A stretch of 4,227 nt of DNA from a virus (lineage: Duplodnaviria > Heunggongvirae > Uroviricota > Caudoviricetes). The notes under the pieces were generated by a model. The model did no database searches. It worked only from the letters and a program-made list of their open reading frames with translations, and had not been told where the DNA came from. Below are positions 1,062 to 2,014 of this stretch, piece after piece (the first letter of the stretch is position 1; each line of letters starts with the position of its first letter). The position numbers and the translations under genes are program-made. Location: positions 1-4,227 of IMG/VR virus record IMGVR_UViG_2547132488_000021; one strand, written 5' to 3'.

Positions 1062-1240
1062 TCCAATCATCAAACGAAACATAAAATTAATTCACATTAT
1101 GAGGAAAAGTATCTTTTTTGTACTATGTAAATTCAAAGACTTAGCCTCATTTCCCCGATGATTTTCTCAACACTACTGGTTGTGAGCCCTTGCAATGTTC
1201 ATTAATATACGTCTCACGAATAATTCATAGATATTGCAAA

Positions 1241-2014
1241 ATGGATATTACTGAGTTTCCTTCTGGAGTAATTGAACACCTTGGCTGGTATGTATACCGA
1301 TTGATTGATCCGAGGGACGGAAGCACCTTCTATGTAGGGAAAGGTAAAGGTAACCGCGTATTTGCCCATATGCGCGGTGAAGTGGCAGCGACTGATGATG
1401 ACGAGTTACTGAGCAACAAGCTAAAGCAAATTAGAGAAATAAGGTTAGCAGGACTTGAGGTTATCCATGTCATCCATCGACACGGAATGACTGATGAAAA
1501 GACGGCGTACGAAGTCGAAGCAGCACTTATTGATGCCTACCCTGGGTTAACGAATATCATGAATGGTGCTGGCAGCAATGAATTCGGCGCCGCGCATGTC
1601 AAAGAGTTGATAGCAACATATCAACCCGAAACCATAACATTTCATCATAAAGCATTAATGATTTCCGTTAACAGAAGTGCAAAGGATTCAGAGCTTTATG
1701 ATGCGGTTCGATTTAGCTGGCGCATTAATGTCTCTCGCGCCAGCCAAGCAGAAGTCATTCTTGCTACTGTAAGGGGGATCGTTCGAGGGGTTTTCATTGC
1801 TGATAAATGGCTCAAATCAACACGTGAAAATTTCCCTACGATGAAATACTGGGACGAGGATCCGGACTTTGAGGCAACACAAAGTTCTCGCTATGGTTTT
1901 GAAGGTCGAGAAGCCCCACCTGAAATAGCAAATTTTTATCTTGGAAAAAAAATACCAGATGAATTAAGAAAAAAAGGAGCTATGTCCCCGGTCCGTTACT
2001 CACCTAATTTTTGA
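1241..2014 (+). CDS. GIY-YIG nuclease-domain protein with an uncharacterised C-terminal domain of about 150 aa
   Basis: Track ORF 1190..2014 begins with TTG; the first in-frame ATG is at 1241. The N-terminal region carries a canonical GIY-YIG signature, [29 protein letters not shown] (tyrosine pair, 10-residue spacer, YVGKG, then the conserved Arg and His), followed by YEVEAALID and LTNIMNG, which place the conserved Glu and Asn where I-TevI/UvrC-type GIY-YIG domains have them. The C-terminal half (from about nt 1570) matches nothing I recognise. No convincing Shine-Dalgarno before either candidate start, so the start is uncertain. Confidence 0.75.

Follow-up and report, generated by a model that had tools for sequence, protein, structure and literature searches.

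The DNA analysed here (IMG/VR record IMGVR_UViG_2547132488_000021, positions 1 to 4,227; this whole stretch of 4,227 nucleotides is referred to as the window) carries a gene for a GIY-YIG nuclease-domain protein next to a Pin-type DNA invertase. The gene is very probably a copy of PD-T4-3, a phage-defence gene that has since been renamed CMoRE. The open reading frame list of the window gives an uninterrupted frame on the + strand from 1190 to 2014, and an earlier note on this DNA had taken TTG 1190 as the start codon. This start has been replaced by ATG 1241, which, judging from related sequences, is almost certainly the correct one, since MDITEFP, the beginning of a product of 257 amino acids, is where the crystallised proteins, the RefSeq annotations and the profiles of PADLOC and PHROG all start. 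TTG 1190 lies 51 nt upstream of ATG 1241, in frame, and is simply the first possible start. RefSeq annotates the identical coding sequence of 774 nt in a strain whose copy of the gene is 100% identical, and in strain UPEC-245U the gene is intact, with 100% DNA identity to that of the window. The gene, its upstream region and the parts of its product are the following:

1241-2014, + strand: PD-T4-3/CMoRE coding sequence, 257 amino acids plus stop codon (PADLOC, PHROG 5356, PDB and RefSeq matches)
1280-1570, + strand: GIY-YIG nuclease domain, residues ~14-110, with the GIYxY-YIG motif (Pfam PF22945)
1394-1405, + strand: acidic run D52-D53-D54-E55, the 'safety-catch' autoinhibitory loop in the alpha2-alpha3 insert (role from PMC12923530)
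1574-2011, + strand: C-terminal modified-cytosine sensing domain, residues ~112-257, with Y127
1065-1240, + strand: upstream non-coding region that moves with the gene and presumably holds a putative native promoter; close homologues cloned under their native promoters are active (PMC12923530)

Identity and domains of the GIY-YIG protein

The protein matches the PADLOC PD-T4-3 model PDLC04031 with 463.5 bits (E = 4.5e-140), residues 1-256 aligning on profile positions 1-255/256, and PHROG 5356 with E = 8e-143. Among the crystallised proteins, it matches PDB 9U75/9U8D ('GIY-YIG domain-containing protein' of E. coli O157:H7) with E = 1.2e-171 and 252 of 257 residues identical, and PDB 9U7U/9U7Z (the APEC O1 protein) with E = 3.6e-150. 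A search of the protein against NCBIfam returned no match. The four PDB entries come from Liu et al. (Nat Commun 2026, PMC12923530), and the name CMoRE for PD-T4-3 is also theirs. PD-T4-3 itself originates from ECOR68 and came to light in a functional selection that drew on E. coli isolates (Vassallo et al. 2022, PMC9519451). The single-gene systems listed in that work include a GIY-YIG nuclease; its main text neither names PD-T4-3 nor describes its locus, and states in general terms that five systems lie in non-P2 prophages (PMC9519451).

It is proposed, with a probability of about 0.93, that the gene represents an intact PD-T4-3/CMoRE allele, which would provide modified-cytosine-dependent defence against T-even phages. 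Direct evidence covers the near-identity of the sequence, the retention of all functional residues, the fold adopted by the C-terminal domain and the genomic surroundings. The gene is already published, with a known mechanism and structure, and the finding is not new. The earlier note had guessed at a single-gene anti-phage nuclease, and the full-length PD-T4-3 match and the 98% identity to the crystallised O157:H7 CMoRE agree with that guess; it had also alluded to reports of GIY-YIG defence proteins from E. coli prophages, of which PD-T4-3/CMoRE is indeed one (PMC9519451, PMC12923530). The arrangement is that of a single-component system that lacks a cognate methyltransferase: the neighbours in the window are an AraC-family regulator gene and the invertase gene pin, and the same holds for three other genomes. 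In one other context (strain ETEC1730), an unrelated type II restriction-modification pair adjoins CMoRE.

The closest relatives, CMoRE of O157:H7 (98% identity) and that of APEC O1 (~87%), have the same length, architecture and single-gene organisation as the window gene, and share with its product the acidic loop and all residues for catalysis, oligomerisation and ligand contact. The window allele differs from O157:H7 CMoRE by five conservative substitutions (T51A, E55D, Q169K, N197H and F232L), all of which miss the highlighted functional sites. The loop reads TDDDE in the window and ADDDD in O157:H7; the acidic run itself is DDDE in the window and in the APEC O1 enzyme, which has the same state at E55, and DDDD in O157:H7.

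The profile hidden Markov model search supports the GIY-YIG signature that had been read from the letters. The Pfam family PF22945 (LEM-3_GIY-YIG) matches residues 28-110 with 54.2 bits, above its curated cutoff of 27, while the generic GIY-YIG model PF01541 stays under its cutoff (13.9 vs 22.6 bits). The roles of the residues in this domain are taken from PMC12923530, in which the N-terminal GIY-YIG domain has an extra tyrosine, giving the motif GIYxY-YIG formed by Y17, Y19 and Y31. Every residue highlighted there (Y17, Y19, Y31, R39, V92, L96, Y127 and the acidic loop) is kept in the window protein, as are H43 and R80. V92 and L96 are residues of the tetramer interface that defence requires. 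The family motif combines the three tyrosines with a catalytic arginine and a catalytic glutamate; R39 is present, and E93 and N105 are invariant even among relatives of 39-59% identity.

The LEM-3 name, which RefSeq also uses, would suggest a nuclease of the UvrC, Slx1 or LEM-3 type that acts in DNA repair or on particular DNA structures in the host or phage. The probability of this is practically negligible, given that the Pfam/RefSeq name reflects fold similarity of the catalytic domain only, that the gene is accessory, prophage-borne and found in 15% of E. coli genomes, and that the specificity for 5-hydroxymethylcytosine (5hmC, hmC) and its glucosylated form (5ghmC, ghmC), together with the phage phenotype, has been shown experimentally for the family. 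With the identification as PD-T4-3/CMoRE, the RefSeq label 'LEM-3-like GIY-YIG domain-containing protein' is seen to hide a phage-defence function in ~1/7 of E. coli genomes, including O157:H7.

For the C-terminal domain (residues ~111-257), no Pfam family was found in the window protein or in 45 homologues at E <= 10, so that the ~150 residues that could not be assigned from the letters were correctly described at the sequence level. The search of these 46 sequences also gave no match at E <= 10 to the profiles of the PUA clan (ASCH, EVE, YTH and SRA). In the structural comparison, the best non-self matches of the domain were VcaM4I, ASCH, YTH and EVE, each with a weak score. Nearly all of the structural matches are PUA-like modified-base readers, again with scores that are individually weak. 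A distant relationship of the domain to these readers is plausible and is put forward tentatively, at somewhat less than even odds. PUA-like domains are the usual sensor class of type IV enzymes (PMC6765204, PMC7897488, PMC12191111), and the EVE-HNH protein VcaM4I (PMC7897488; screen in PMC6765204) shares with the window protein the logic of a sensor fused to a nuclease. Liu et al. describe the C-terminal domain as a distinct fold for which their sequence and structure searches gave no homologue, and PUA, ASCH, YTH and EVE are nowhere named in their text (PMC12923530). That the 5hmC sensor may descend from a remote PUA-like ancestor is one of the two extras that the analysis adds.

Published mechanism and the window allele

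Expression of CMoRE lowers the plating of T2, T4 and T6 by ~5 logs, and the cells outlive a high multiplicity of infection, which indicates direct defence and not abortive infection (PMC12923530). The purified enzyme degrades DNA containing 5hmC and glucosyl-5hmC and spares DNA with cytosine or 5-methylcytosine (5mC); T4(hmC) is still sensitive, while T4(C) escapes (PMC12923530). Cleavage takes place at CN11/N9G, leaves 2-nt 3' overhangs and needs two modified sites (PMC12923530). A 15-residue acidic insert caps the active site, and the 4A mutant is toxic and cuts unmodified DNA; the tetramer, a dimer of dimers, is required for function and is abolished by V92S/L96S (PMC12923530). In the crystal, the C-terminal domain binds 5hm-dCTP, the hydroxyl of which is bonded to the main chain of Y127 (PMC12923530). 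The literature also holds evidence from a native host, in that deletion of the chromosomal gene in the clinical isolate NILS69 led to sensitivity to Tevenvirinae.

A more distant member of the family, PD-T4-3Capno from Capnocytophaga, has 48% identity to PD-T4-3 and likewise degrades T4 DNA in a modification-dependent manner, leaving T4-GT7 DNA undegraded (PMC12366544). At high dose, it is reported to act on Mu DNA as well, which contains carbamoylmethyl-adenine (PMC12366544).

Given that the sequence is near-identical and that the key residues are all conserved, the same mechanism is assigned to the window protein with high confidence. The protein would assemble as a tetramer, the C-terminal domain of which would bind the 5-hydroxymethylcytosine or glucosyl-hmC of incoming T-even phage DNA. 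The GIYxY-YIG nuclease would then cut between two modified cytosines (CN11/N9G, 2-nt 3' overhangs) with Mg2+ or Mn2+, while the acidic loop DDDE 52-55 over the active site would spare unmodified host DNA. The expected outcome is direct defence with cell survival; the alternative of abortive infection was rejected on the published survival of cells at high multiplicity of infection (PMC12923530).

Several points weigh against this interpretation. The activity of the window allele is one that we infer from its sequence, and its expression is assumed, since neither a sigma-70 consensus promoter nor a Shine-Dalgarno sequence was found: a consensus scan of positions 380-2120, in which total counts were lower than the shuffle expectation, gave no + strand sigma-70 promoter ahead of the gene, nor does ATG 1241 have an obvious Shine-Dalgarno sequence in front of it. 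The same scan found no terminator between the convergent CMoRE and pin genes. Of the five substitutions relative to crystallised O157:H7 CMoRE, two fall within or beside the autoinhibitory loop. Defence by the APEC O1 homologue was weak when its own promoter drove it (PMC12923530), and frameshifted alleles occur in the species, so that some copies are non-functional.

The lack of a promoter and Shine-Dalgarno match, the frameshifted copies and the weak APEC O1 promoter would also fit an inactive or silenced relic, that is, an intact reading frame whose allele is unexpressed or non-functional within a defective prophage, and the surrounding prophage is indeed degraded in several strains. Such a relic is nonetheless very unlikely: the reading frame is intact with all key residues present, the gene is 95-100% conserved in 838 genomes, the O157:H7 gene (98% protein identity) is active from its native promoter (PMC12923530), and the chromosomal NILS69 copy is active in its native host. 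A functional PD-T4-3/CMoRE allele is for this reason preferred. The presence of the gene predicts restriction of hmC/ghmC phages, which is relevant to phage therapy and to the host range of T-even phages; the finding opens no new question.

The pin-distal cargo slot and the CMoRE cassette

The surroundings of the gene are made up of the following features:

2035-2074, no strand: 40-bp sequence AACCGCAGCACGATCTTCTTGCATACGACGTGCTACGGTT, between the CMoRE stop and the pin stop
2075-2629, - strand: Pin-type serine DNA invertase, 184 amino acids from MLIGYVRVS (Resolvase E = 1e-51, plus HTH_7; RefSeq pinE); not part of the defence gene
2691-4227, no strand: Pin-invertible tail-fibre segment with two alternative fibre C-termini and two assembly chaperones (Pfam Gp53-like_C and Caudo_TAP)
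721-1064, - strand: captured piece of the native serU locus, 344 bp, made up of 278 bp of yodB-serU intergenic DNA and the 3' 66 nt of tRNA-Ser(CGA) (999-1064)
1-416, - strand: first 138 codons of an AraC-family regulator gene truncated at the left edge of the window (RefSeq WP_000246059.1); outside the serU relic and not in the cassette

Positions 1-2709 of the window are 100% identical to strain UPEC-245U (NZ_CP049845.1), in the same orientation. In this strain and two others, the AraC-family regulator gene is followed by ~820 bp without annotation and then by CMoRE, pin and the invertible tail-fibre genes, beyond which lie the ymfQ, baseplate and tail genes of an e14-type prophage with a myovirus tail. 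The O157:H7 prophage has the neighbourhood of the window, with the AraC gene, the serU relic, CMoRE and pin, and the CMoRE-pin junction was found in 577 genomes. As had been noted from the letters, the gene converges on the invertase: pin lies on the - strand, and a 60-bp spacer separates the two stop codons. The gene had also been taken to be more AT-rich than its neighbours, which holds against pin (43.7% GC for CMoRE, 50.1% for pin) and does not hold against the tail-fibre segment, which at 43.3% is equal.

The slot between the stop codon of pin and the prophage end is occupied by mcrA in e14 of K-12, by an AAA ATPase and McrC pair (McrBC-like) in strain ET745, by an AAA ATPase and a hypothetical gene in strain F467, and by a type II restriction-modification pair with a frameshifted CMoRE in ETEC1730; in strain AVS0790 it is empty. 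LD91-1 carries CMoRE at the prophage end without pin. It is clear from these contents that e14-type prophages have a variable cargo slot at their pin-distal end, in which modification-dependent restriction genes are recurrent. This comparison across related prophages bears out the cargo-slot idea of the earlier note, and the analogy that it drew with e14 stands as well, given that mcrA occupies the equivalent position beyond pin in K-12. The description of the slot as a place where type IV restriction genes are found again and again is the second extra.

In e14, mcrA lies between pin and the attachment site of the prophage, and its product is, like CMoRE, a stand-alone modification-dependent nuclease directed against modified cytosine. 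McrA is an HNH type IV enzyme, unrelated to the GIY-YIG protein of the window, and is known for 5mC/5hmC DNA rather than glucosylated hmC. The orientations also differ, as mcrA is co-directional with pin (- strand), whereas the window gene converges on it.

In LD91-1 and ETEC1730, homology to the window starts at 1043, and in LD91-1 it ends at 2077. By these limits, the transferable unit would measure ~1.03 kb, comprising ~200 bp of upstream sequence, the gene and 60 bp downstream. The 40-bp sequence at 2035-2074 is also conserved downstream of pin in prophages that lack CMoRE, and in LD91-1 and ETEC1730 a diverged second copy of it precedes the cassette on its left side. With copies on both sides, the cassette is bracketed by direct repeats in these two contexts. 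The copies of the cassette in other contexts span 5780-6835 of locus L004 and 5790-6870 of locus L005, and at the left end of the cassette 11-17 nt are identical to the anticodon stem-loop of serU (TTTCGAGACCGGTCC).

The movement of the gene as a ~1 kb cassette across several contexts is one of the observations that would fit a free-standing GIY-YIG homing endonuclease (Seg or I-TevI-like), which spreads by cutting cognate sites in genomes without the gene. A weak match to PHROG 314 'homing endonuclease' (E = 7e-4) and the annotation of the jumbo-phage homologues as 'putative homing nuclease' by their depositors point in the same direction. This alternative, which the earlier note had kept beside defence, was not upheld and is extremely unlikely. 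The family that the protein matches from end to end is one of defence enzymes, whose modification-dependent and sequence-relaxed cleavage has been demonstrated, and NUMOD, IENR1 and other homing DNA-binding modules were not detected by Pfam in the protein and 45 homologues, leaving the PHROG 314 match on its own. Furthermore, the slot in which the gene lies is otherwise taken up by restriction systems, and no intron, intein or conserved gene surrounds it. The chromosomal contexts in which it is found are those of defence and cargo genes.

The serU piece at 721-1064 is 97% identical to the K-12-type chromosome at serU and breaks just past the anticodon stem; its junction was found in 414 genomes. 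It probably represents, as far as the sequence comparison goes, host DNA that was picked up when serU served as an attachment site, and that was left as an attachment-site relic at the prophage end. If so, CMoRE would be the outermost phage gene at this end, and the AraC gene would lie beyond the boundary.

Distribution, relatives and neighbouring features

Of 5,426 complete E. coli genomes, 838 (~15%) carry the CMoRE gene with a DNA identity of 95-100%, and more than 6,500 related protein clusters occur in a large protein collection. Full-length homologues of 39-45% identity are also found in virulent jumbo phages (~250-285 kb) of Serratia, Pectobacterium, Pantoea, Klebsiella and Pseudomonas, for instance in Serratia phage Moabite (L011 2501-3265) and Pseudomonas phage OBP (L012 2492-3253). 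They keep Y17, Y19, Y31, R39, E93, N105 and Y127, are devoid of the DDDE autoinhibitory run, and bear the depositors' label of homing nucleases. These homologues could be weapons against co-infecting hmC phages.

The serU piece lies far from serU, between the AraC island and the CMoRE cassette, and its tRNA-Ser fragment has two T-loop mutations that are missing from the O157:H7 copy. ARAGORN found no intact tRNA in the window. The Rfam search gave sub-threshold matches only, of which RF04351 (1002-1053) and tRNA-Sec (1010-1080, - strand) are explained by the tRNA-Ser fragment; the match to CssrB at 2038-2097, with 24.5 bits against a gathering score of 76, was read as chance.

The longest open reading frame of pin (2075-2665, - strand) starts 12 codons upstream of MLIGYVRVS, with MASFLLLPGGFN. 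This extension overlaps the region beside the left crossover site and is probably untranslated. The inverted crossover sites that flank the tail-fibre segment lie at 2691-2709 and 4209-4227 (inverted repeat I6), the right one being cut by the end of the window. The segment is 99.9% identical to that of UPEC-245U and lies in the opposite orientation, and both switch states have therefore been captured.

The AraC-family regulator gene has 34.6% GC and encodes the same protein as that found in a small CMoRE-carrying prophage remnant of O157:H7. It may correspond to PatE (z0321, OI-8), for which it is a candidate; PatE is a prophage-encoded regulator of acid resistance (PMC10877973).
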